Origin: Nitrosopumilaceae archaeon
GTDB taxonomy: Archaea > Thermoproteota > Nitrososphaeria > Nitrososphaerales > Nitrosopumilaceae
Direction of reading: 5' to 3'
DNA length: 64,000 bases
NCBI GenBank assembly: GCA_965208905.1
Contig: OZ242365.1
Span: forward strand, 2,150,776-2,214,775
Part shown: positions 1 through 61,579 of the stretch, piece by piece
Layout of the letters: each line of letters starts with the position of its first letter
Position numbering within the stretch: the first letter of the stretch is position 1
The notes under the pieces: model-generated
What the model saw: the letters and a program-made list of their open reading frames with translations, nothing else
Databases searched by the model: none
Told to the model about the DNA's origin: nothing
Made by a program: the position numbers and the translations under genes

Positions 1-535
1 ACCAAATCAAACGATTATACAGGAAGGCTGACGGCATTGCCGTGAATACCATAAACCAGACTGTATCACGTGTTGTACAGGGTACGGATGCCGTCATAGC
101 CGAGATACTATCCATACAGGACATGACCGCACATGGTGGGAACTACAAAAAACACATGAACCGTTCCATGCGGGAGAATAGGCTTGGCGAGTTCCTGCGG
201 AAGTTGGCGCAGCGATGCGAAAAAGAAGGCATTCCATTGTGTGGGGTGATGGCCAACTATACAAGCCAGACGTGCCATGTGTGTGGTCATGTAGATTCGG
301 AGTCGCGTATATCACGCGACCAGTTCATTTGCACTAATTGTACCAGAGTATTTCACGCGGACGTAAATGCCGCCTGGAATATTCTGTATCGGGTGGCGGG
401 GAACGTCATCCTTAGACGGCCGGAGCATAAGGAGGGTTACAAGCCAACACCCACCATGCTCTATACTATACAACGAGGCCGTCAGAAAAGGCATGAGTGT
501 ACGGCTGAGGCTGTGTACTTTTGTATATAATTCCC
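1..535 (+). mobile_element. Right part of a tnpB element ending in ...TATAATTCCC (GGGAATTAT-type terminal repeat)
   Basis: The same ATAATTCCC terminus closes the complete element at 31489-32926 and the remnant ending at 46550. Confidence 0.7.
3..530 (+). CDS. tnpB: TnpB-family RNA-guided nuclease, 3' part (truncated by window edge)
   Basis: The frame is open from position 3. It has a RuvC-II acidic residue (IAEIL), a TSQTCHVC...CTNC zinc ribbon and RuvC-III HADVNAA. Confidence 0.9.
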   Translation, partial: QIKRLYRKADGIAVNTINQTVSRVVQGTDAVIAEILSIQDMTAHGGNYKKHMNRSMRENRLGEFLRKLAQRCEKEGIPLCGVMANYTSQTCHVCGHVDSESRISRDQFICTNCTRVFHADVNAAWNILYRVAGNVILRRPEHKEGYKPTPTMLYTIQRGRQKRHECTAEAVYFCI

Positions 536-12952: not shown

Positions 12953-13996
12953 TCTATTGTGCGGAAATTAGTTCGCCCTAACTTTAGACTGCCAACCAAA
13001 GAATATTTTAGTCTATATAGATCACGCAAACCCATGAGAGTCAATCTGACACAGAAGCAGATAGATTATATCATTCGACAATGCAGGAAAGGTAGTAGTA
13101 CATCACACATTGCTACAGAGATGAAGATTAGCCAGAGACGCGTACAACAACTCTGGGCAATGTATCGTGCAACGGGCAAGATTCCCACACTACAAATGCC
13201 AGGCAGACCCAAGATTCCTCCCACCGAGGAGCAAACCAACGTCGTACTAGCAGCACATCGTATAATGCCAGCAGGCGTCACAAGGATCACCAAGTACTTA
13301 AATCACAAGGGCATACAAATAAGTGAAAAAACGGTATACACAATCATGAAAGAAAACAATATGGTCACTCCATCTGCAGCAAAATCGCGCAGGCGTAAAT
13401 GGATACGCTATGAGCGCAGATACTCCAATGCGATGTGGCATACGGACTGGCATGCGATGAAAGATCCACGTTTTCAAGGCTACCAATTAATCACATATCT
13501 TGATGATGCGTCAAGATGTGTGGTTGGAGCCATGATATTCAAGGGGGCCACATCCGAGAACGCGGTAACAGTCCTGCAAAATAGCATTGTTGAGTTTGGA
13601 ACCCCGGCCACCATACTCTCCGACAACGGATCGTGCTTTGTGGGTGTGAGAAGAAAGATTCCTGCAAAATCATGGACCCCCACTATATTTGAGGCAGAGC
13701 TGCTTGACCGGGGTATTGAGTTGATCAACATCCGCCCCTACCACCCACAAACAAACGGCAAGCTTGAACGGTTCCACCGCACCTTGGAAGAAGAACTATG
13801 TCATTTTGGCAGCCTAGCGGAGTTTGTCGCGTACTACAACGAGGTGCGACTGCACTGGTCTTTAGACATAAACAATGGCGAGACCCCGCTACAGGCATTT
13901 CACAACAAAAAAGTACCAGATGATGTCAGGAAGAGTGACTTAGAATGGATGGAGAGGGACACCGATGACTAGGCGAAATAATTTCGACATAATACA
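12953..13996 (+). mobile_element. IS481-family insertion sequence
   Basis: Imperfect TIRs TCTATTGTGCGGAAATTAGTTCGCC and TGTATTATGTCGAAATTATTTCGCC. Confidence 0.85.
13034..13972 (+). CDS. IS481-family transposase (rve integrase core)
   Basis: Motifs WHTD, LDDASR, ILSDNG and PQTNGKLERFHRT. Confidence 0.92.
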   Translation: MRVNLTQKQIDYIIRQCRKGSSTSHIATEMKISQRRVQQLWAMYRATGKIPTLQMPGRPKIPPTEEQTNVVLAAHRIMPAGVTRITKYLNHKGIQISEKTVYTIMKENNMVTPSAAKSRRRKWIRYERRYSNAMWHTDWHAMKDPRFQGYQLITYLDDASRCVVGAMIFKGATSENAVTVLQNSIVEFGTPATILSDNGSCFVGVRRKIPAKSWTPTIFEAELLDRGIELINIRPYHPQTNGKLERFHRTLEEELCHFGSLAEFVAYYNEVRLHWSLDINNGETPLQAFHNKKVPDDVRKSDLEWMERDTDD

Positions 13997-24584: not shown

Positions 24585-24630
24585 ATGTAAGAATGTCAAA
24601 GAACCTATAAAAGAACAGTTAATCATGTAG

Positions 24631-25956
24631 ATCTCTGAGAATCTAGGTGTCGTTCAAGAGACTGTAGCTCCAGACCCCTCTGCCACTGCAATACCATCTC
24701 TGATGAGTGAGGTGAGGGACAATGTCATTAAAGCCAGCTTTTACGCAAAGCAATTTGCCGCTACCAATAACGAGAACGCCATAAGTCTTTGGCCAAAGAA
24801 TGACGACGCTTACGGCTTGGAGTATGACTTTACCTTTAGCTGTGACAAGCCTGTCCTAGTCGATACGGTTACGGTTACGGCAGAAGGGCCACTGAAGGGT
24901 GATGACGAGCTTCCTGCTGCTGGCAGTAGTAACGCTATTAGTGCGGGGGCTTATGGTCACCCACTTCTTGTTAGAACATACGATGACGATGATACCCGTC
25001 CCACTACACCTGCCGAGGAACTAATTCTAGATCCGGCAACAACAATCACGGTTAATGGTCGCACTATAGTAGATACTGACTTTGATACTGGTAGTAGTAA
25101 TGTTGCATTTATTAAGCCAGCAGACTTTGAGCTCATGCACCTAAATCCAGGACAGACACTGAACTTTAAGACGGAGGTAAACTTTAGAGCATATACTGAC
25201 GTTGAAAGTCCAGACTTTCAGTCCGAAGATCCACGAAAAGTTGGTTTCATATATAAACTGAATAGTAGCGATAAGGAGGTCACTGATACTAATGTTAATG
25301 TTCCATACTATCCTGCGGGCGGCTCCATAGGTGTTGACCATGATGGTGGTGATACCACCCCTACGATTGCGATAAACACATTCGCAAACCTAACCAATGG
25401 CAACTCCACACAACTTGAGCACTTTGACTTTGACATATTCAAAGTAAACGTAGATTACATATCACTAACTGGTAGCAATGCACAGTGTGCACTAAGCTTG
25501 CCTGATGACCCCACAATCTATCCACACAATCCATCTGCACTACTAATCAACTTGGTGGCTACCGGTGATGGTTTAATAAAGAACTTTGAGGCAATGGTAG
25601 ACTGTAACGACCGACCTACTAGAATTGTAGGTTCAGAGCTCAAGGCTAGTCATTCGGTGGGCGCTTCTGCGGCAGCTGCATCTAACTTGAAGATAGAGGC
25701 TGGCGGAGAGTCAATGTCCTTCAGATTAACCGAGGGTGAAACCCTAAACCTGTCTAGTACTACACAACCCAAGGCATTGAGCTTTGACTCTGGCACCATA
25801 ACGATTAGTGGTCAAGTACCACAAGTTTCAGGCGTGTTATTGAGTCTCAAGTATAATACATCTACAGGCAACACTTGTAGTATAGTTACACAATAATACA
25901 GTTTTTTCATTTTTTATTGTATAATGCCCCATATGGTGGCATAGATCCATATGGTG
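24631..25956 (+). repeat. Inverted repeat arm 1 (1326 bp): leaderless copy of the surface-protein 3' region and terminator
   Basis: Reverse complement of 26689-28014. Differences are clustered at 25729-25863, and a TAG immediately precedes the frame. Confidence 0.95.
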
Positions 25957-26029
25957 ATCTAAAGATATGATGTAAATCCAAGCAACAGTACGATGGCGCC
26001 CACCAACAAACCGTTAATTATACAAGTGG

Positions 26030-26688: not shown

Positions 26689-28014
26689 CACCATATGGGG
26701 CTATGCCACCATATGGGGCATTATACAATAAAAAATGAAAAAACTGTATTATTGTGTAACTATACTACAAGTGTTGCCTGTAGCTGTATGATACTCGAGA
26801 CTCAATAGCACACCAGGAACTTGTGGTACTTGACCACTAATCTTTATGGTGCCAGAGTCAAAGCTCAATGAGTTGGGGCCATCAGTTTTGGTTAGGTCTT
26901 CACTAGGGGCACCCTGTAATCTGAAGGACATTGACTCTCCGCCAGCCTCTATCTTCAAGTTAGATGCAGCTGCCGCAGAAGCGCCCACCGAATGACTAGC
27001 CTTGAGCTCTGAACCTACAATTCTAGTAGGTCGGTCGTTACAGTCTACCATTGCCTCAAAGTTCTTTATTAAACCATCACCGGTAGCCACCAAGTTGATT
27101 AGTAGTGCAGATGGATTGTGTGGATAGATTGTGGGGTCATCAGGCAAGCTTAGTGCACACTGTGCATTGCTACCAGTTAGTGATATGTAATCTACGTTTA
27201 CTTTGAATATGTCAAAGTCAAAGTGCTCAAGTTGTGTGGAGTTGCCATTGGTTAGGTTTGCGAATGTGTTTATCGCAATCGTAGGGGTGGTATCACCACC
27301 ATCATGGTCAACACCTATGGAGCCGCCCGCAGGATAGTATGGAACATTAACATTAGTATCAGTGACCTCAGTATCGCTACTATTCAGTTTATATATGAAA
27401 CCAACTTTTCGTGTATCTTCGGACTGAAAGTCTGGACTTTCAACGTCAGTATATGCTCTAAAGTTTACCTCCGTCTTAAAGTTCAGTGTCTGTCCTGGAT
27501 TTAGGTGCATGAGCTCAAAGTCTGCTGGCTTAATAAATGCAACATTACTACTACCAGTATCAAAGTCAGTATCTACTATAGTGCGACCATTAACCGTGAT
27601 TGTTGTTGCCGGATCTAGAATTAGTTCCTCGGCAGGTGTAGTGGGACGGGTATCATCGTCATCGTATGTTCTAACAAGAAGTGGGTGACCATAAGCCCCC
27701 GCACTAATAGCGTTACTACTGCCAGCAGCAGGAAGCTCGTCATCACCCTTCAGTGGCCCTTCTGCCGTAACCGTAACCGTATCGACTAGGACAGGCTTGT
27801 CACAGCTAAAGGTAAAGTCATACTCCAAGCCGTAAGCGTCGTCATTCTTTGGCCAAAGACTTATGGCGTTCTCGTTATTGGTAGCGGCAAATTGCTTTGC
27901 GTAAAAGCTGGCTTTAATGACATTGTCCCTCACCTCACTCATCAGAGATGGTATTGCAGTGGCAGAGGGGTCTGGAGCTACAGTCTCTTGAACGACACCT
28001 AGATTCTCAGAGAT
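26689..28014 (-). repeat. Inverted repeat arm 2 (within and downstream of the full-length gene)
   Basis: Reverse complement of 24631-25956. Confidence 0.95.
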
Positions 28015-28527
28015 ACTACTCAACTGAGTCTGAAGTGCATCAAGTTTCTGGTTCACATTCTCCTCTAGAGCGTTAAGTCTAGCATTTGTACTGGTACTCA
28101 GATCGTTGACAGTAGCCTGCAAGTCGCTGCTATCACCCATGGACTCTACATGTTCATCTACATGCGCAACAGCATCCTTTACTGCATCTATCTCATCGGC
28201 TAGATCATCAATGGCACTTGCAACATCAGCGGCACCCGCTAGAGTTGTCTCAATATTAGTCAATTTGGATGTTATCTCGGCGTTTGATGAGCTGACATCA
28301 GAACTCAATTGGTCAACACTGCCAGTTAGAGCTTCTATAGATGCCATGAGACTGTTCAAGGCCTCCTGAATCATCTTTACAACACTATTGGTGTCATCAG
28401 TAGTATTTACAACAGTTGTTAATTTTTCAGTATTTGTCTGCGCAAATGCGTCAGTTATCGTCGTTGTACCTGCAATCACTACTATAGATAGTAGAAGAGC
28501 AGGTAGGAATTTACTTTTCATTGTCAT
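26749..28527 (-). CDS. Secreted coiled-coil surface/fibre-like protein (full-length copy)
   Basis: Signal peptide ...DAFA|QTNTE, a ~150-aa coiled coil and a beta-rich C-terminal region. Confidence 0.85.
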   Translation of the reverse strand: MTMKSKFLPALLLSIVVIAGTTTITDAFAQTNTEKLTTVVNTTDDTNSVVKMIQEALNSLMASIEALTGSVDQLSSDVSSSNAEITSKLTNIETTLAGAADVASAIDDLADEIDAVKDAVAHVDEHVESMGDSSDLQATVNDLSTSTNARLNALEENVNQKLDALQTQLSSISENLGVVQETVAPDPSATAIPSLMSEVRDNVIKASFYAKQFAATNNENAISLWPKNDDAYGLEYDFTFSCDKPVLVDTVTVTAEGPLKGDDELPAAGSSNAISAGAYGHPLLVRTYDDDDTRPTTPAEELILDPATTITVNGRTIVDTDFDTGSSNVAFIKPADFELMHLNPGQTLNFKTEVNFRAYTDVESPDFQSEDTRKVGFIYKLNSSDTEVTDTNVNVPYYPAGGSIGVDHDGGDTTPTIAINTFANLTNGNSTQLEHFDFDIFKVNVDYISLTGSNAQCALSLPDDPTIYPHNPSALLINLVATGDGLIKNFEAMVDCNDRPTRIVGSELKASHSVGASAAAASNLKIEAGGESMSFRLQGAPSEDLTKTDGPNSLSFDSGTIKISGQVPQVPGVLLSLEYHTATGNTCSIVTQ

Positions 28528-31452: not shown

Positions 31453-31488
31453 GCGTAGTTCATATATTAAACTATGTGAAAGGTTCAG

Positions 31489-32926
31489 GGGACTTATCCC
31501 TGTAACTGTAACCTAAAAACAGCCAGACTTGTAAACCCATCTCATGAGTTAGGTTTTTAAAGTACTATAGTGTATAGAACGGTATATATAGATCACATAG
31601 TGTCCGCATAGACCTGACACGCCCTCAGGCGCGTCACATATCCAAAATACGGAACTCACAGCGGTTCGTGTATAATTGGGCCGTAGAGAAGTTGCTGGTC
31701 GACCCCACACTCACCGCATACGATCTCCAAAGTGAGTTTACCAAACTTCGCAGATGTACACCGCACCTACAGGAAGTGGAGCGCATATACCAAAATACGG
31801 CCATCCAGCAGGCCCGCACTGCTGCGGATGTCTCAAACAAATACGGCAACGGCAAACTAGGTTTCCGCTCCAGAAAGCGCGACAATACAAAGGCAGTATC
31901 ATGTGATGTACAGCCACGATTTGTGGACAACAAGCATGCGTCATTGCCGGGCCTTGGTGTTGTTGAGTTGCCTGAGGAGCAGCCATACCAATTTCCACAC
32001 AACTGGCTGTATGGCTCAAGGTCTTTCCGTTTGGTATGTGTAACACCAAAGTCGTGGATACATTATACGCCAGGTGACCACATATACAGGCTGCACATAA
32101 CATATGACGTACCTACACCCGAACGGGGCGCCAAGACTGGTGTTGTTGCCGGCATAGATAGGGGGATAACAAATCCAACGGTTGTCTGTAAGACAGACCA
32201 CAACACTTCGTGTATAATATCGTATGACACGGCAACCGCATTCCGCACGAACCGTACATGGAATGATGATGCGCGTCGTACCATATCACACCGCAACAAG
32301 CATTCCCGTACAACATACAAGATGAAACGTAAGCGAGAAAAGTACAATCGTGGTAATGCGAATGACCGCGAGTATGCGGAGTGGCTTCTAGTCAAGAAGA
32401 TATGCGAGGGCGTGGATGTGATATATGTCGAGCAGCTCCACCTTGAGGCCATGAGCAGGCGCGGTGGCAGGCACAAAAGGGGCATGAATCGTGGCATGAG
32501 GCTCATTCGGCATTATGCAATACTGCGAAAGATACGCATTATCGCAGAGCGGTTGGGCATCCGTGTAGTAGAAGTGAATCCAAAACGCACGAGTCAGGAG
32601 TGCAGTGTGTGCGGCTACACAAACAAGGAGAATCGAAATGGGGAGATGTTCAAGTGTATGGGATGTGGGCATGTAGCAAACGCCGACGGCAATGCGTCGG
32701 TGAATATAATTCAACGGGGGACCGGTATGAAGGTTCCCACGGGGGAAGGAATAGCTCTCGAAAGGCGTGAAATGGGCCGGACCCGGAAGCCACCTGTTTG
32801 TGCAGTTCCGGACGCCAGACGGCGGCGTGAGAATCAAGCGTGCAATCGACCCAAAACATCAAGCGTCATGAAGCATCTGGGAATGTACGCGTATGTTACG
32901 TATGTTCAGTAAGGTGGATAATTCCC
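31489..32926 (+). mobile_element. Non-autonomous tnpB element with TIRs and 8-bp TSD
   Basis: Ends GGGACTTATCC and GGATAATTCCC (10/11 inverted match). AGGTTCAG is duplicated at 31481-31488 and 32927-32934. Confidence 0.8.
31668..32912 (+). CDS. tnpB: TnpB-family nuclease (frame open from ~31578; true start may be near 31584)
   Basis: RFVYNWA, RuvC motifs GIDRG / YVEQL / NADGNA, and CSVC..CMGC zinc ribbon. Confidence 0.92.
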   Translation: MYNWAVEKLLVDPTLTAYDLQSEFTKLRRCTPHLQEVERIYQNTAIQQARTAADVSNKYGNGKLGFRSRKRDNTKAVSCDVQPRFVDNKHASLPGLGVVELPEEQPYQFPHNWLYGSRSFRLVCVTPKSWIHYTPGDHIYRLHITYDVPTPERGAKTGVVAGIDRGITNPTVVCKTDHNTSCIISYDTATAFRTNRTWNDDARRTISHRNKHSRTTYKMKRKREKYNRGNANDREYAEWLLVKKICEGVDVIYVEQLHLEAMSRRGGRHKRGMNRGMRLIRHYAILRKIRIIAERLGIRVVEVNPKRTSQECSVCGYTNKENRNGEMFKCMGCGHVANADGNASVNIIQRGTGMKVPTGEGIALERREMGRTRKPPVCAVPDARRRRENQACNRPKTSSVMKHLGMYAYVTYVQ

Positions 32927-33130
32927 AGGTTCAGAGATTTCATAGTCCTGAATTCAGTTCGCTATTTAAGACATAGGCTTGGCAAGCGATACGTATGGAA
33001 TAGAGGAAAATGTTACAGTATCATAACAAACCTTGATCCAGTCAAAGATACATCATGCGGCAAATGGAGCTTGGAAGAAGCACCAAGAAAATCCCAGTGG
33101 CGATGGGCACCTCTCACTTTAAGGCTGAGT

Positions 33131-36384: not shown

Positions 36385-37637
36385 AGATGGAGTGGACCCC
36401 ATAGAATGTTACTGTTTTCGGCATGATTTTACATACATCTTCCATCATTTATTTGTCATCTCCAACTGTTCGGCAAATTCTACTGGTGTCATGTATCCGA
36501 TAGAGGAATGAATCCTCTCGGTGTTGTAATCTACAAAGGCCTTTGCAATGATCGTCTCTGCCTCCTGATAGTTCGCAAACTCGTGCGGCCAGATGTATTC
36601 CTTTTTCAGCGTCTTGTGAAATGATTCGACATGTCCGTTCTGCTCCGGCGTATTCTTGTAGATGAATTCATGTTTGCCGATGCCAAGGGCCTGGACCGCA
36701 TGTCTAAAGTCGTGGCTTGTATACTGGTTGCCGTTGTCCGTACGCAATCGTAATTGTGAGCAGTCAGGTTTCTCTGCGGCAACCGCGTTGGTGATTGAGG
36801 TGATTGCAATGTCTCGTGTGGCATTGACATCAAACGCGTAGGCGATCCACTTGCGCGTAAAGCAGTCAATTACGTTGAAGCAGTAGCACCAGCCGTCTAT
36901 ACCGCACCAGATGTATGTGATGTCCGTCTCCCACAACTGGTGTGGGGCTTTGGGTTTGAAGAGCTTTTGACCCGCTCGAATGATGTCGTTTTTGGTATTT
37001 TGTGGCTGGATGTAGCCCATTTTGCGATATATCCGCTGTATCTGCTTGCGGTTCACCACAATTCCCGTATCGCGCGTTATCTGGGCCGCCATGCGCCGTG
37101 TGCCGTACGTGGGCCTCTTTCTGCTCGTATCTAGCACAGTGCTCAATATATCCGGATTCAATCCCATGTCTCTGGGCTTGGGTTTGTAGTACCATTGGCG
37201 CCTGGATACGCCCGCATACCCTAGCGACTTGCGCAGGCTCAAATGTTGTTCCTGCATGATTTTTACCGCGTTCAATCGTTGCTTGCCTCCAAGGTTTTTT
37301 TTAAAGCGTCGTTTGCGATTGTCAGATCCCCTATGATTCGCTTTAGGTCGCCGTTCTCCTTTTTGATGGCCTTTATCGGATCCTTCTTTCCGTGATGGGT
37401 CAGTCCGGACTTGCCTGCGTCCATGAACTTTTGCCGCCAGGCTTGAAACGTTTGGGGATGAACGTTGTGCTTGCGGCACAGCTCGGCCGTGCCAATATTG
37501 GTCTTGATTGATTCCAAAACGATCTGGATCTTTTGGTCTGGAGTAAACTTTGTTCTTACCATGGCATCATCCCTCCCATTACGACTTTAAGCTGTATGAA
37601 CGTGAGTGTTCTCATTCTAGCGGGGTCCAGCCCATCA
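36385..37637 (-). mobile_element. IS3-family insertion sequence
   Basis: Imperfect TIRs TGATGGGCTGGACCCCGCTAGAATG and AGATGGAGTGGACCCCATAGAATG, enclosing orfA/orfB. Confidence 0.9.
36445..37562 (-). CDS. IS3-family transposase OrfAB (programmed -1 frameshift)
   Basis: OrfA 37272..37562 is an HTH. Slippery A8 run at 37295-37302. OrfB has WETDITY, RTDNG and NGHVESFH. Confidence 0.9.
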
Positions 37638-56948: not shown

Positions 56949-58982
56949 TTATAGTATTATAATCGCCACAAAGGCGGGAACAAAGACTATGGCTACAGTG
57001 TTTAGTAGTTTTATTACAGTATTTAGTGCAGGACCGGCAGTGTCTTTGTAGGGATCCCCAATTATGTCGCCGACGACGGCCACCTTGTGTTGTTCACTAC
57101 CTTTCTCGCCGCGCATCTCTACCAATTTCTTGGCATTGTCCCACGCGCCACCGGTGTTTGCCAGATGGTACGCCAAAAATATGCCCGTGACCACCGAACC
57201 CATCAATAGGCCGGCCACCGCCGTCGGACCCAATAGTACACCTAGTATGATGGGAGACGCTATGGCAATAATTGCAGACTTCCACAGCTCACGTATGGAT
57301 GCCACAGTGGCAATATCTACACATTTGGCATAGTCGGGCTTGGTCTTGCCAGTTAAAATACCTGGACTCTCTTTGAATTGACGGCGCACCTCATCAACCA
57401 TCTTGCTTGCCGCACGCGAGACACCATTAATTAACTGACCAGTTATGATAAACGGCAACAGTCCGCCGACAATCAGGCCCACTATGACTGCTGGGTTGGT
57501 CAGCGAGTAGTCCAGACCCAATATGCCCTCAAATACATGAGCCGCCTCAAACTGAAATGCCTGTATCATGGCCAAGGCAGCTAGTGCCGCACTTGCTATG
57601 GCAAAGCCCTTTGTTACTGCCTTTGTTGTGTTACCCACTGCATCTATCTCGTCGGTAACCTTGCGGTTTGACTCCCCCATTCCTGTCATCTCCACTATTC
57701 CGCCAGCATTATCTGCTATGGGACCAAACGCATCTATACTTAGGACTATGCCTGCAAGACTTAGCATTGCCATGGCTGTTAATGAGGTTCCAAATATGCC
57801 ATACAGAACAGGGTCGGCATCAGGAGGTGCGGCTGCCGAAGATATGGCAAATGATATGATTATGGCGGCTACAAGTGCAATCATGAACGGACCAGTGGAC
57901 TGTAATCCTTTGATTATGCCCATGAGGGTCAAAGAGGCATAGCCCCAACGCGCCGACTCGGCTATCTCTATTACGGGGCCAAACTTGTAACTGGTATACC
58001 TGTCGGTTATCTTTTGAATTACGGGTACCAGAGCCACGCCTACTATCGTGGCTCCAAACAGGGCATATGCGGCCTCACCTTCCACTAGTATAGTCAAAAA
58101 TACAAAGTTTAGTGCTATGGCGATGGCTGCAGAAACATAGAATGATGTGTTTAGAGGCTTCATAACATCTGATATGTTGGTGCTTCGTACTATGATGACT
58201 CCAATTATTGATGCCAACATTCCAGAGGCGCCCACCAAAATTGGGTACATGAACAAATCCGGAGCACCTATCAGGGCGGCAATCAGGAGTGATGCCAGGA
58301 TTGTAACTATATATGATTCATAGACATCCGAGCCCATGCCCGCAGCATCACCCACATTATCTCCCACATTGTCGGCTATTGTGGCAGGATTGCGTGGATC
58401 GTCCTCTGGTATGTTGGCCTCCACCTTGCCCACCAGGTCGGCGCCCATATCTGCAGCCTTTGTAAATATACCGCCGCCTATACGTATGAAGAGTGCAATA
58501 AGGCTAGCGCCTATGCCCACACCTGCTATGGTTATGGGATCCGGAAATATCATGTATAGGCCAGCAATTGCCAGTAGCGCCATGGCTGGAATCGTCAGTC
58601 CTACAGTAGCTCCTCCCCGGAACGCCATGGCAAATGTCTTACCCAGACCCTCGCCACTCAGATTTGCTGCCCGAACAGCAGCCTTGACGGTAATCTTTAG
58701 TGATATCAGGCCTGCCACTGCTGAGAGTGCGGCCCCTACGGCAAATGCTATACCGTTGGAATAGTTAAGAAATGCCCCAATTATTACCGACAAGCCTATG
58801 GCCACAGGAATTATAATCTTCATCTCACGACGCAAAAATGCTGCAGCTCCTACACGTACAGCTTCGGATATCTCCAACATCTGTGGTGTACCTGCATCCT
58901 GACGCGAGATCCACATGGCCAAGCCTACCGCAATTAAAATAGATGCAATGCCTGCGCCTATAGGTAACATCTCCAGCATCAT
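56949..58982 (-). CDS. hppA: Membrane H+-translocating pyrophosphatase (K+-independent type)
   Basis: Motifs DMGADLVGKVE, EDDPRN, DNVGDNVGD, GNTTKA and GDPYKD. Confidence 0.96.
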   Translation of the reverse strand: MMLEMLPIGAGIASILIAVGLAMWISRQDAGTPQMLEISEAVRVGAAAFLRREMKIIIPVAIGLSVIIGAFLNYSNGIAFAVGAALSAVAGLISLKITVKAAVRAANLSGEGLGKTFAMAFRGGATVGLTIPAMALLAIAGLYMIFPDPITIAGVGIGASLIALFIRIGGGIFTKAADMGADLVGKVEANIPEDDPRNPATIADNVGDNVGDAAGMGSDVYESYIVTILASLLIAALIGAPDLFMYPILVGASGMLASIIGVIIVRSTNISDVMKPLNTSFYVSAAIAIALNFVFLTILVEGEAAYALFGATIVGVALVPVIQKITDRYTSYKFGPVIEIAESARWGYASLTLMGIIKGLQSTGPFMIALVAAIIISFAISSAAAPPDADPVLYGIFGTSLTAMAMLSLAGIVLSIDAFGPIADNAGGIVEMTGMGESNRKVTDEIDAVGNTTKAVTKGFAIASAALAALAMIQAFQFEAAHVFEGILGLDYSLTNPAVIVGLIVGGLLPFIITGQLINGVSRAASKMVDEVRRQFKESPGILTGKTKPDYAKCVDIATVASIRELWKSAIIAIASPIILGVLLGPTAVAGLLMGSVVTGIFLAYHLANTGGAWDNAKKLVEMRGEKGSEQHKVAVVGDIIGDPYKDTAGPALNTVIKLLNTVAIVFVPAFVAIIIL

Positions 58983-59037
58983 TATATATCGTGGAATCAT
59001 GAACCCGTAAATATAAACTAAGGCAACGACTCTGAAC

Positions 59038-60490
59038 TGGGCTGTGACGTTATCTACGCGCGTCGTATAACACACGCTGTACAACACAGCTGCTACACAC
59101 TTGGGCTTTCACCCAATGCAACAAATGTTGGCAAATTACCATCCAGAGGAGTTTCCAAGAGACGTTCATTGTCGGTATGGCTTTGACGCCTAACCTGGTG
59201 ACCGCCTGTACCGGCAATCACGTCATTAACACCTGGAGGAATCGTGCAAGTGCCAAGATGTATCTTTCCTCTCGAGACCATTCCAGCCTCGTTGTATAGT
59301 TCGTAAACGCCCTGAGAGCGCTTACTCCATCGTATAATACGAAAAGCGAAAAGTATGTTGAAGGCGGCATTTACATCAGCATGGCATGCCATACCGCAGT
59401 TATAACACCTAAACTTACTACCCTCACGCCATGTATTCATGCTACAGCACATGCAGCACTGCTTTGAGGTATTTTTGGGGTCTATCTCAATGTATTCTAC
59501 ATTATACCGTAGGGATTTTTGCGCAATATCATTACGCGCCTTACCACACCTACTTTGTCGTGTTATGCGGTTCTTGGTCTTCTGACCCTTGCCTTTACTC
59601 GTCATGGTACGAAGGTTCATTCCCTCCATGATGATTCTATCACATTGTTTCATTAATTTCTTGTTAAACTTGCGCATCTTGTCGGTCTGACGGTTTCCCA
59701 TCTTTTTGTATATGCTATCTAACTGGTCGTAAAGTTTGCGCCACCTGTGGGAGTGTAGTTTACACCTGCTAATCTTCTTGTGAATCCGCGCTATGTTGCG
59801 CAGTGTATCTTTCTCTCGTAGTGTGAGCATAGCAATCGTACCATCGGACTTGCCTACAACTAAAGTGTGCTTGCCCCCCATATCTATACCTGCATGTACA
59901 CCCGTACAGACGCGGGCCGGTACATGCTCCCGTATTGTGATATGTAGTTCAAACTGTCTTTCCTTATCGGCATTATTCGTAACATCTACAATCTTGTATA
60001 ATTGTGAGTCTGAGGGCAGTTTACCTTTCTGTAGTTTGAATTGAACATTGCACTTTGGGAAGTATACTGTATTACCTTTGGATTTCTTGCCCAACGGCAC
60101 ATCACTAAACAGGGGATATGTCTTGCGCCCATACCTCACATATCTGCAATTTTCCAGCTTGTATCCTTCCCGTATGGCGCCGCGAGCCCAGGTCTGGGGG
60201 ATGGTCCGAAGTTTGGCGGCTATTTTTTGGGTGTCGAACACCGACAACCCAGCACGACGAGCCTCAATACCTGCATTAAGCCATATGTGGGATTCAGAAT
60301 ACATTGAGTCAAAGTATTTCGTAAGTTTGCTTGATGTCTTTAAACGGTACTGTAAAGTTTTTATAACGTACTTTTCTCCACGATACTGCATGTATAATAC
60401 ACTACTTGGTGGTATTTAAGCGGTAGAGGTTTGTCTACTATACAGTACATCGAGTTGTCTGGGGACGCGCGCAGATAACGTCACAGCCCA
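59038..60490 (-). mobile_element. Non-autonomous tnpB element with 27-bp TIRs and 8-bp TSD
   Basis: TIRs TGGGCTGTGACGTTATCT(A/G)CGCGCGTC (26/27). CTCTGAAC is duplicated at 59030-59037 and 60491-60498. Confidence 0.95.
59093..60391 (-). CDS. tnpB: TnpB-family nuclease
   Basis: KTLQYRL N-terminus, RuvC motifs GIDMG / IMEGM / HADVNAA, and a zinc ribbon. Confidence 0.92.
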   Translation of the reverse strand: MQYRGEKYVIKTLQYRLKTSSKLTKYFDSMYSESHIWLNAGIEARRAGLSVFDTQKIAAKLRTIPQTWARGAIREGYKLENCRYVRYGRKTYPLFSDVPLGKKSKGNTVYFPKCNVQFKLQKGKLPSDSQLYKIVDVTNNADKERQFELHITIREHVPARVCTGVHAGIDMGGKHTLVVGKSDGTIAMLTLREKDTLRNIARIHKKISRCKLHSHRWRKLYDQLDSIYKKMGNRQTDKMRKFNKKLMKQCDRIIMEGMNLRTMTSKGKGQKTKNRITRQSRCGKARNDIAQKSLRYNVEYIEIDPKNTSKQCCMCCSMNTWREGSKFRCYNCGMACHADVNAAFNILFAFRIIRWSKRSQGVYELYNEAGMVSRGKIHLGTCTIPPGVNDVIAGTGGHQVRRQSHTDNERLLETPLDGNLPTFVALGESPSV

Positions 60491-60758
60491 CTCTGAACCC
60501 CTACGGGAGTCAGACATCCCTCTCATCATAAGAGATGGTGACTGTCCACATTATTTGGAGACATATGTTGGTAGAACGTACCCGAAATATGATTGAGTGA
60601 ATACTCTAGTGATGAAACAAAAGAACTATGCGAAACAGTGACAGGCTGCTCAACATATTGCCCGTCATCAGCTCCGGAGGATGCTACAAAGGTTAGACTA
60701 TCGCCTGAGTCAATGAATGAGTGCCAGTCAGGCATCACGTCCTGTATACAAGATACAT

Positions 60759-61436
60759 TCAGAACCGTCTCTCTTTTGGCAGTAGTGGTGATAAGGCGCG
60801 CGCAAACTCCATCAGATTCTTGGTCTGATAATACACTACACCAGGACCGGTTATCTCTATGACCAGCGACTCACCACCAAATATGGTAGTCTTGAAACTC
60901 CCATGTCGTCTAACATCATATTGTATCGTACCCGACAGGGCCACCAGTTGATAGTTGTCTAAAATCATACTCTCATCTGCCTTTAGTGTAACCTTTCTGA
61001 TGCCGCCCCAACCGTCCACGAATACATCCCCTGTACCGATGGTCTTTAACATGAAGAGGTTACTTCCGAATATCCCCTTTGTAAAGCCCTGCCACTTTGT
61101 GTCCAGTGTTATGGTACCAGTAGATGCCACGTACGAGCCTGATTGTATTATGTACTCCTCGTCTACATGTATGACATCTATATCTCCTAGTACATTACCT
61201 GTGACGCCCAGCATGCAGTTATCCTCATGAGCCGTAAACTCGTTGACAAAGAATGATTCGCCGGCCAGTACCGTTGATTTTAATGTCCTGAATAGACCAC
61301 CCTCACGGGTCCTTGTGTTCGTAGTTATATCGCCACGCATGTACACCATCGCCCCTGCCTCGGCGGTAACTTTGTCATTCCAGTCCATAACAAAGTCCAC
61401 CATGCCTACCGGGTTCTTGACTATGTCGTATCGCAT
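60759..61436 (-). CDS. AIM24/TIGR00266-family protein
   Basis: Motifs AEAGAMVYM, GESFFVN and GPGVVYYQT. Confidence 0.9.
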   Translation of the reverse strand: MRYDIVKNPVGMVDFVMDWNDKVTAEAGAMVYMRGDITTNTRTREGGLFRTLKSTVLAGESFFVNEFTAHEDNCMLGVTGNVLGDIDVIHVDEEYIIQSGSYVASTGTITLDTKWQGFTKGIFGSNLFMLKTIGTGDVFVDGWGGIRKVTLKADESMILDNYQLVALSGTIQYDVRRHGSFKTTIFGGESLVIEITGPGVVYYQTKNLMEFARALSPLLPKERRF

Positions 61437-61579
61437 ATTGTACAATACATGGGGATGCGTAAAATGGTTTCGTAGAGGGAACACCATGAAACAGATGCCA
61501 CCAGCAGTCTGATTCATTAGTAATGTGGCTCATCCGCAACAATAGACAATACTAAAAATAAATAAAAAATATTCTCAAG

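Follow-up and report, generated by a model that had tools for sequence, protein, structure and literature searches.

Introduction

TnpB nucleases are usually tied to the insertion sequence (IS) families IS200/IS605 and IS607, in which they restore the donor site after scarless excision of the element. We analyzed a tnpB element in a 64,000-nt stretch of DNA from a sponge-associated Nitrosopumilaceae archaeon (genome G000, contig C1; GenBank OZ242365.1). We call the whole stretch the window, and coordinates without a prefix that refer to the element and its neighbors are positions in it. The element adjoins the upstream side of hppA, the gene for a proton-pyrophosphatase, and has terminal inverted repeats (TIRs) and a target-site duplication (TSD). 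We conclude that it is probably a non-autonomous transposon of the cut-and-paste type, with TnpB and its omegaRNA as cargo, that is moved in trans, probably by a DDE transposase of the IS1595 family.

Elements with TnpB within inverted repeats of the DDE type have been known from the literature since 2023. Altae-Tran et al. (2023, PNAS, PMC10691335) describe six DDE-associated TnpB branches (DDE-1 to DDE-6), all with inverted terminal repeats, in which the 3' end of tnpB is mostly less than 250 bp from the transposon end; solo TnpBs carry the ends of transposase-bearing relatives and are presumed to be mobilized in trans. The main text of that paper names only IS630 (DDE-6), and a 2026 review (PMC13565253) lists ISL2, IS630, and IS1031. 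By title and abstract, no paper on TnpB with IS1595 was evident, and the branch lists of PMC10691335 may already include IS1595. The element described here resembles these branches in that TnpB lies inside inverted repeats, with its 3' end well within 250 bp of the TIR, and differs from them in that no transposase-bearing partner was found for its TIR.

Three other systems are close in some respects and different in others. The IS1341 group of IS200/IS605 and the palindrome-associated transposable elements (PATEs) also carry tnpB and a 3' omegaRNA as cargo, and the IS1341 group, as in haloarchaea, likewise has many diverged copies per archaeal genome (PMC3119063). In contrast to our element, with its 27-bp TIRs, 8-bp TSD, and no TnpA, they depend on the Y1 transposase TnpA and, like IS200/IS605 and IS607 as described in PMC13565253 and PMC3119063, have neither TIRs nor TSDs. 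Members of the IS1595 family typically have 8-bp TSDs (PMC8101967), as this element does, and the ends of both start with GG(G); members resident in G000 carry passenger genes, and sister tnpB families share 13-nt termini with IS1595 members. Unlike them, the element has no DDE_Tnp_IS1595 gene, and beyond its first 3-4 bases the TIR matches no IS1595 element that we found. Fanzor proteins are also TnpB-type RNA-guided nucleases in DDE-type transposons with TIRs and TSDs (PMC13565253, PMC3627910), but they are eukaryotic, whereas here the host is prokaryotic, the TnpB is compact (432 aa), and the element is non-autonomous. What TnpB contributes to a DDE transposon, which in any case leaves a double-strand break behind, is treated as an unsettled question in PMC13565253.

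The element and its insertion upstream of hppA

The tnpB gene is enclosed by inverted repeats and an exact duplication of the target. The element is 1,453 bp long (Table 1). A repeat search of the window found that the two 27-nt arms of the TIR are 96% complementary, with one mismatch. The 18-nt core of the TIR had exactly two matches in the window, compared to 0.04 expected, and none of 100 shuffled sequences reached two. The ends of the element read TGGGCTG, and the 8-bp sequence CTCTGAAC is directly outside both arms. The sole long open reading frame (ORF) in the element is tnpB, whose stop codon ends at 59093, 28 nt from the inner edge of the TIR at 59064. The initial annotation of this DNA had described near-perfect 27-bp TIRs with one mismatch, a TSD at both ends, and a tnpB stop about 28 bp from the TIR, and all three were borne out by the measurements. 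The element encodes no transposase and must therefore be moved in trans.

Comparison with a related genome revealed the empty site. We searched the DNA of 30 relatives and obtained matches to both sides from a genome of the same genus, G005: identity is 97% on the hppA side and 94% on the AIM24 side, and the two matches overlap by 7 bases. The hppA-AIM24 spacer in G005 is uninterrupted and reads ...AAGGCAACGA-CTATGAGC-CCCTACAGG..., so that one 8-bp target stands in place of the CTCTGAAC-element-CTCTGAAC of the window. Based on this comparison, we conclude that the element is a true insertion with a true 8-bp duplication, and the clean empty site upholds the initial proposal of a recent insertion, for which this spacer in relatives had been named as the place to look. 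The element inserted after this lineage had split from the sister species G005. The occupied site is also present in contigs of a DNA run from a second organism label (X12), and the contigs of that run hold a further copy of the element with a different flank at 59038.

The distance from the TIR to hppA depends on the start codon of hppA. We take the ATG at 58982 as the likely start. The TATA-like sequence AATATAAA (59010-59017) is approximately 27 nt upstream of this ATG, and we preferred this start because an alternative ATG at 59000 would be 10 nt from the TATA-like box. With this start, the distance from the TIR to the start codon is 55 nt, in agreement with the approximately 55 bp given initially. 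The element landed 55 nt upstream of hppA and left the TATA-like box of its promoter intact.

A start at the GTG at 59087, which gives the longest ORF, would be inside the element, and we rejected it as an artefact. Automatic annotation that uses this GTG could add 35 spurious N-terminal residues to hppA (window 59000-59087). Contigs from three sponge metatranscriptome runs cover hppA from 58500 to 58975, and all of them end at 58964-58975, near the proposed start, which is a weak hint.

Table 1. Features of the tnpB element and its flanking genes (positions in the window).
Feature	Position	Strand	Evidence
TSD, copy on the hppA side (CTCTGAAC)	59030..59037	.	sequence; single 8-bp copy CTATGAGC at the empty site in G005
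TIR at the tnpB 3' end	59038..59064	.	repeat search, core count, copies elsewhere in G000
Spacer between tnpB stop and TIR, part of a predicted hairpin extending into the inner TIR	59065..59094	-	fold; similar hairpin in paralogues by eye
omegaRNA scaffold overlapping the 3' end of the tnpB ORF	59095..59287	-	covariation, codon-position identity, RNA contigs
tnpB, 432 aa, RuvC D-E-D and CxxC..CxxC kept	59093..60391	-	ORF, Pfam, structure-chain alignment
Archaeal TATA/BRE (B recognition element)-like box CGCTTAAATA (minus-strand reading)	60413..60422	-	kept in 10 of 11 paralogue upstream regions; putative function
TIR at the tnpB 5' end	60464..60490	.	repeat search, core count, copies elsewhere in G000
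TSD, copy on the AIM24 side (CTCTGAAC)	60491..60498	.	sequence
hppA (H+-pyrophosphatase), neighbor	56949..58982	-	Pfam H_PPase, E 4.5e-226
AIM24-family gene, neighbor on the opposite side	60759..61517	-	Pfam

TnpB and its omegaRNA

tnpB is intact, and the nuclease that it encodes has kept its catalytic motifs and is apparently active. The protein matches the Pfam families OrfB_IS605 (PF01385; 38.8 bits, cut-off 30.5) and Cas12f1-like_TNB (PF07282; 51.2 bits, cut-off 26.3). Its motifs GIDMG, IMEGM, and HADVNAA fall on the D, E, and D of the RuvC triad in an AI-designed nuclease (chain 9yyg_A), and the matches to chains of ISDra2 TnpB (8bf8 and 8exa) span the same residues (152-369). Two CxxC pairs are located between the motifs of this triad, whose D-E-D residues we take to be catalytic by analogy with ISDra2 TnpB. 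Approximately 22 nt before the tnpB ATG is the sequence CGCTTAAATA, which is present in 10 of 11 close paralogues and may be an archaeal promoter for a near-leaderless tnpB mRNA.

A structured omegaRNA overlaps the last ~190 nt of the tnpB ORF. We aligned 24 of 26 homologous regions (15 from G000, eight from G005, and one from G008), leaving out L110, which has a 24-nt insertion, and L114, whose 5' part has diverged. RNAalifold predicted 35 base pairs for the 24 sequences, 11 of them with compensatory changes. In the predicted structure, 97.5% of the cells pair, compared to 92.4% in shuffled alignments, and the covariation score was reached by none of 500 shuffles. Sliding the partner by 1-3 columns reduced pairing to 36-49%. 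An extra helix, GGCACTTG..CAAGTGCT with GCGACACT..AGTGTCGT, was found by eye and had been missed by the alignment, and a 273-nt stretch of the window folds with z = -3.28. No Rfam family matched across 58900-60600.

The same region changes its mode of conservation. Among 11 paralogues, pairwise identity at codon positions 1, 2, and 3 was 0.83-0.86, 0.87-0.88, and 0.56-0.57 for residues 1-347, and 0.78, 0.74, and 0.71 for residues 369-432. This switch indicates that the C-terminal tail of TnpB is constrained as nucleic acid and not as protein. The initial annotation had called the tail non-conserved and had proposed that the omegaRNA overlaps both the tail and the TIR. The first point needs revision, since the tail is kept among paralogues at the nucleotide (RNA) level. 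The overlap with the tail is supported by the covariation and the codon-position identities, and read-through of the TIR into the flank is something that we infer.

Metatranscriptome contigs are compatible with this omegaRNA. Contigs from sponges (X1 and X2) cover 59072-59272 and 59618-59830 at a depth of 0.7-6, a coverage that fits the omegaRNA and is without transcript ends.

Probable mobilization in trans

Movement by an IS1595-family DDE transposase acting in trans is the best-supported mechanism. G000 is a single contig of 2.21 Mb and is 99.57% complete. It has no Y1 transposase (Y1_Tnp, PF01797; best E 0.35) and no serine recombinase (Resolvase, PF00239; best E 0.076) above cut-off. Comparison of G000 with itself identified two further families of tnpB elements, family 2 (14 loci of ~1.47 kb) and family 6 (nine loci of ~1.42 kb), both of which end in GGGAATTATATAC and have 8-bp duplications. 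These 13 nt also terminate the resident IS1595-family elements A and D, which encode DDE_Tnp_IS1595 and Zn_ribbon_IS1595 and, judged by eye, a passenger resembling a DNA methyltransferase. Families 2 and 6 therefore share their ends with DDE_Tnp_IS1595 elements, whereas the window element does not. In a census of this terminus type, limited to elements with a duplication that matches at 7-8 of 8 positions, we counted 22 elements: 15 carry tnpB, four carry the DDE gene, and three are short and gene-less. The tnpB/omegaRNA lineage of the window element is itself connected to these ends; its relatives L098 (duplication TAATATAT/TAATATAG) and L104 (TATAGTTA) in G005 end in the IS1595-matching terminus type of families 2 and 6. 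These mixed ends indicate that one tnpB/omegaRNA module is behind several kinds of inverted ends. The 8-bp TSD and ends that begin with (T)GGG give the window element a footprint of the IS1595-family type. Based on the 8-bp TSDs, the shared termini of the sister families, and the relatives in G005, we infer that an IS1595-family DDE transposase most likely mobilizes the window element as well.

The ends of the window element are found elsewhere in G000. A 23-mer of the TIR had eight matches. Six are the paired ends of the window element, of a second tnpB copy, and of a 1,054-bp derivative without tnpB; the remaining two are a solo end at 1905800 and a degenerate end at 1599470. The initial annotation had let its reading depend on finding other elements with these ends, and the second tnpB copy, the derivative, and the solo ends are such elements. 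The second tnpB copy (G000:C1:250605-252075) has 78% nucleotide identity and a TSD of CTTAGTCA/CTTGGTCA (7/8). The two full copies are 22% different inside, yet only 1-2 of 27 TIR positions differ, which suggests that the TIR is under selection and favors the existence of a cognate enzyme.

Close paralogues have other TIRs and, again, 8-bp duplications. A tblastn search of G000 with TnpB gave 53 match rows, which correspond to roughly 45 places by our reading of the list. The other close paralogues have 67-78% amino-acid identity, and premature stops break two of the 11. One paralogue (c378) has the TIR TGGGCTGGTAACTAAACG.. and the duplication TAGACTAA (8/8); the duplication matches at 8/8 in c769 and c1380 and at 7/8 in c1948 and c395. 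A 54-bp TIR without a recognizable duplication was found in c402, and no clear TIR in c741 and c1692. Part of these boundaries were set by eye from the flanks.

Several observations weigh against movement by an IS1595-family transposase. All eight matches of the TIR 23-mer in G000 are accounted for, and no transposase gene is flanked by this TIR. The TIR was found in none of 150 other genomes of the family, G005 included, and had no match in a public metagenome contig collection; in public genome contigs, a 17-mer of it had 42 single matches, in unrelated bacteria and at about chance level by our estimate. A search for relatives of TnpB in the metagenome contigs gave 49 pattern matches, none of which was confirmed by tblastn. 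Between the TIR and the ends of resident IS1595 elements, only (T)GGG is shared. All 10 genomes of the genus have IS1595 DDE genes, so that co-occurrence is uninformative, and among 10 IS1595 loci in relatives TIRs were definable at two, neither of which resembles the TIR of the element. In G000 and the 150 family genomes, we found no IS1595-family transposase bounded by TGGGCTGTGACG-type ends, the type of the window element. The only IS1595-type DDE protein in G000 that is without a Zn ribbon has 239 aa and CGCTCAT-type ends.

The label IS1016-like is unproven. The initial annotation had applied it to the TIRs and had envisaged an IS1016-group transposase with the same ends. We found none in G000, the 150 family genomes, or the two public collections. 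The initial annotation gave GGGgctg as the end motif presumed for the IS1016 group, and a transposase of this group would be without the Zn ribbon.

These observations also bear on who else might move the element. The same architecture could be moved by another DDE family that makes 8-bp TSDs, or by an IS1595/IS1016-type enzyme that was lost or is on an unassembled plasmid or virus. This would fit with the missing cognate transposase, with the 3-4 terminal bases that are all the TIR shares with resident IS1595 ends, and with the many further IS families of G000, which were compared by ends alone. However, none of the 15 repeated families whose ends were compared has termini similar to those of the element, the same tnpB/omegaRNA lineage has IS1595-type termini in G005, and all TSDs are 8 bp. 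A set of 13 DDE_Tnp_IS240/rve-like genes (355-462 aa) had no convincing TIRs. We consider such a mover unlikely.

An ordinary tnpB-only element of IS200/IS605 (IS1341 group), moved as single-stranded DNA by a Y1 TnpA and with coincidental repeats, is very improbable. A small palindrome at each end, GCGCGTGTC..GACACGCGC-like by eye, recalls the subterminal hairpins of such elements (PMC3119063). However, the empty site proves the 8-bp duplication, a 27-bp TIR is far beyond chance, G000 has neither a Y1 nor a serine recombinase, and elements of this kind are described as being without TIRs and TSDs (PMC13565253).

A proposed flank-derived guide and a candidate TAM

The guide of TnpB would come from the flank. 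In family 2, the ORF stops 5 nt short of the element end, and alignment of the copies breaks down precisely at the boundary, so that any guide must be flank sequence that starts with the duplication. A hypervariable internal guide segment, as in aCas1-TnpB loci, was rejected because the variable sequence of family 2 begins exactly at the element boundary.

Family 2 has a conserved motif just outside the duplication. We used 10 copies with a 7-8/8 duplication, oriented by tnpB (e.g., G000:C1:33496-34967 and 1310837-1312308); three copies with decayed duplications (ACCG, TACA, and TTGA) were excluded. Immediately beyond the duplication on the tnpB 5' side, the four bases were A (9/10), T (9/10), any base, and G (10/10), and the first base of the duplication was T in nine of 10. 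Nothing comparable was seen on the 3' side. When the end-variants CATG and TATG and the element at 913845 (GATG) were added, G at -1 was present in 13 of 13, compared to three of 13 on the other side. Family 6, which has the same terminus type, is without the motif (AGTA, ACAC, GATA, TTAA, CTAT, and TGAA), and the flanks of the four DDE elements are GGAC/TATG, ATAG/ATTA, GAGG/TAGA, and TTTC/AACA. Because ATNG tracks the TnpB lineage and orientation and not the ends, it behaves as a target-adjacent motif (TAM) would, and it looks like a candidate TAM for family 2. TnpB cuts ~15-21 bp from the TAM. Formation of the 8-bp duplication by a staggered cut of TnpB was rejected, as the conserved motif abuts the duplication.

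For the window element, we envision that the omegaRNA scaffold would be transcribed from the last ~190 nt of tnpB and that the transcript would continue through the 3' TIR, so that the guide would consist of the 8-bp duplication and the flank next to it on the hppA side. With this guide, TnpB would cut copies of the site that are unoccupied or from which the element has just been excised, and recombinational repair would favor retention of the element.

More generally, the homing function of TnpB might have been re-fitted to DDE transposons, a proposal that we make tentatively and hold to be somewhat doubtful. The guide would start with the duplication, and the TAM, with ATNG of sister family 2 as the candidate, would adjoin the duplication on its 5' side, in the other flank. 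Once the element has been excised and the break repaired by microhomology, or on a chromosome copy without the element, the TAM, TSD, and flank would be rebuilt and cut, and the element would be copied back. Copies adjacent to a TAM would persist and multiply, and copies elsewhere would hop away.

Some of our results speak against a TAM and a flank-derived guide. Three of the four DDE-bearing elements also have G at -1 on one side, and the family-2 motif may reflect a preference of the transposase (there are four DDE elements only). In the lineage of the window element, the flanks show no clear motif (n = 9; AGGG, CAGT, CAGG, TTGG, ATGT, GAGT, ATAT, CATA, and TATA), and the automatic TIR/TSD finder recovered only L098 among 17 further loci of this lineage, from which no TAM could be derived. 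The RNA evidence consists of assembled contigs at a depth of 0.7-6, and in the three sponge runs none of these crosses the TIR; the TIR and its flank (58986-59066) are uncovered, which at such depth is uninformative on read-through.

A domesticated TnpB that acts as an RNA-guided regulator of hppA and is not part of a mobile element would fit with the position of the element, on the same strand and ~20 nt upstream of the hppA TATA-like box, and with a guide that would match promoter-proximal hppA DNA, but it is highly implausible given the intact catalytic triad, the absence of the insertion from the sister species, and paralogues with the same ends at unrelated sites.

Other mobile elements in the genome

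The 1,054-bp derivative is at G000:C1:1880028-1881081. It has the same TIRs and is without tnpB and without a duplication. The first 115 nt at the tnpB-3' end are retained, and with them the last hairpin of the omegaRNA. Its ORFs match no Pfam family, and a 470-bp repeat adjoins it. ORFs in the derivative and beside the solo end at 1905800 have no transposase domain.

The degenerate TIR at 1599470 is 37 nt from the end of a 399-aa ORF (G000:C1:1599539-1600735; L156:1037-2236, minus strand) with C-terminal CxxC motifs, and the layout of this ORF relative to the TIR is that of tnpB. The ORF had no Pfam family and no informative Atlas neighbor; it has one paralogue with 40% identity, at 1053148-1054221.

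The four IS1595-family elements with a DDE and a Zn-ribbon gene are at G000:C1:1043578-1046414, 1770047-1772736, 675271-677401, and 1211856-1213986 and have perfect 8-bp AT-rich duplications. Two of the four have a large passenger ORF that, by eye, is DNA methyltransferase-like with an HNH-like tail. The three gene-less elements, at G000:C1:341419-341790 (372 bp), 658457-658571 (115 bp), and 759618-760047 (430 bp), combine GGGAATTAT-type ends with perfect 8-bp duplications and are, judging by these features, derivatives of the same IS1595-type system that resemble miniature inverted-repeat transposable elements.

Members of both other tnpB families are in the window. Window 1-535 (G000:C1:2149851-2151310) holds the 3' part of one of the 10 family-2 elements used for the motif, truncated where the window begins; it has GGGAATTACATAC ends, and its duplication is TATTAAAT. 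A family-6 element is at approximately 31488-32928 (G000:C1:2182263-2183703), with ends GGGACTTATCC / GGGAATTATCC and the duplication AGGTTCAG.

G000 as a whole is very IS-rich, with at least 15 repeated families of 0.7-1.7 kb, 59 rve-domain matches, and 31 IS240-type matches. Several IS elements are inside the window (e.g., at approximately 13424-13747, 24627-25959, 26689-28019, and 36544-36933).

Discussion

Two practical points on annotation follow from this locus. Genes for TnpB that stand alone are not automatically members of IS200/IS605, and ORF callers may prolong hppA into the element by 35 codons.

If homing has been re-fitted as proposed, it would explain the motif in 13 of 13 family-2-type insertions and would answer what an OMEGA nuclease gains a DDE transposon. 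G000 is a compact natural test system for this question, as it has no TnpA and has several tnpB lineages in carriers with TIRs and TSDs. It also offers IS1595 transposases with ends that match two tnpB lineages, a dated insertion with its empty site, and a candidate TAM outside the duplication. The element is of interest mainly for this genome-wide picture and for the TAM-like motif; with these, what TnpB does in DDE-type transposons can be put to the test.

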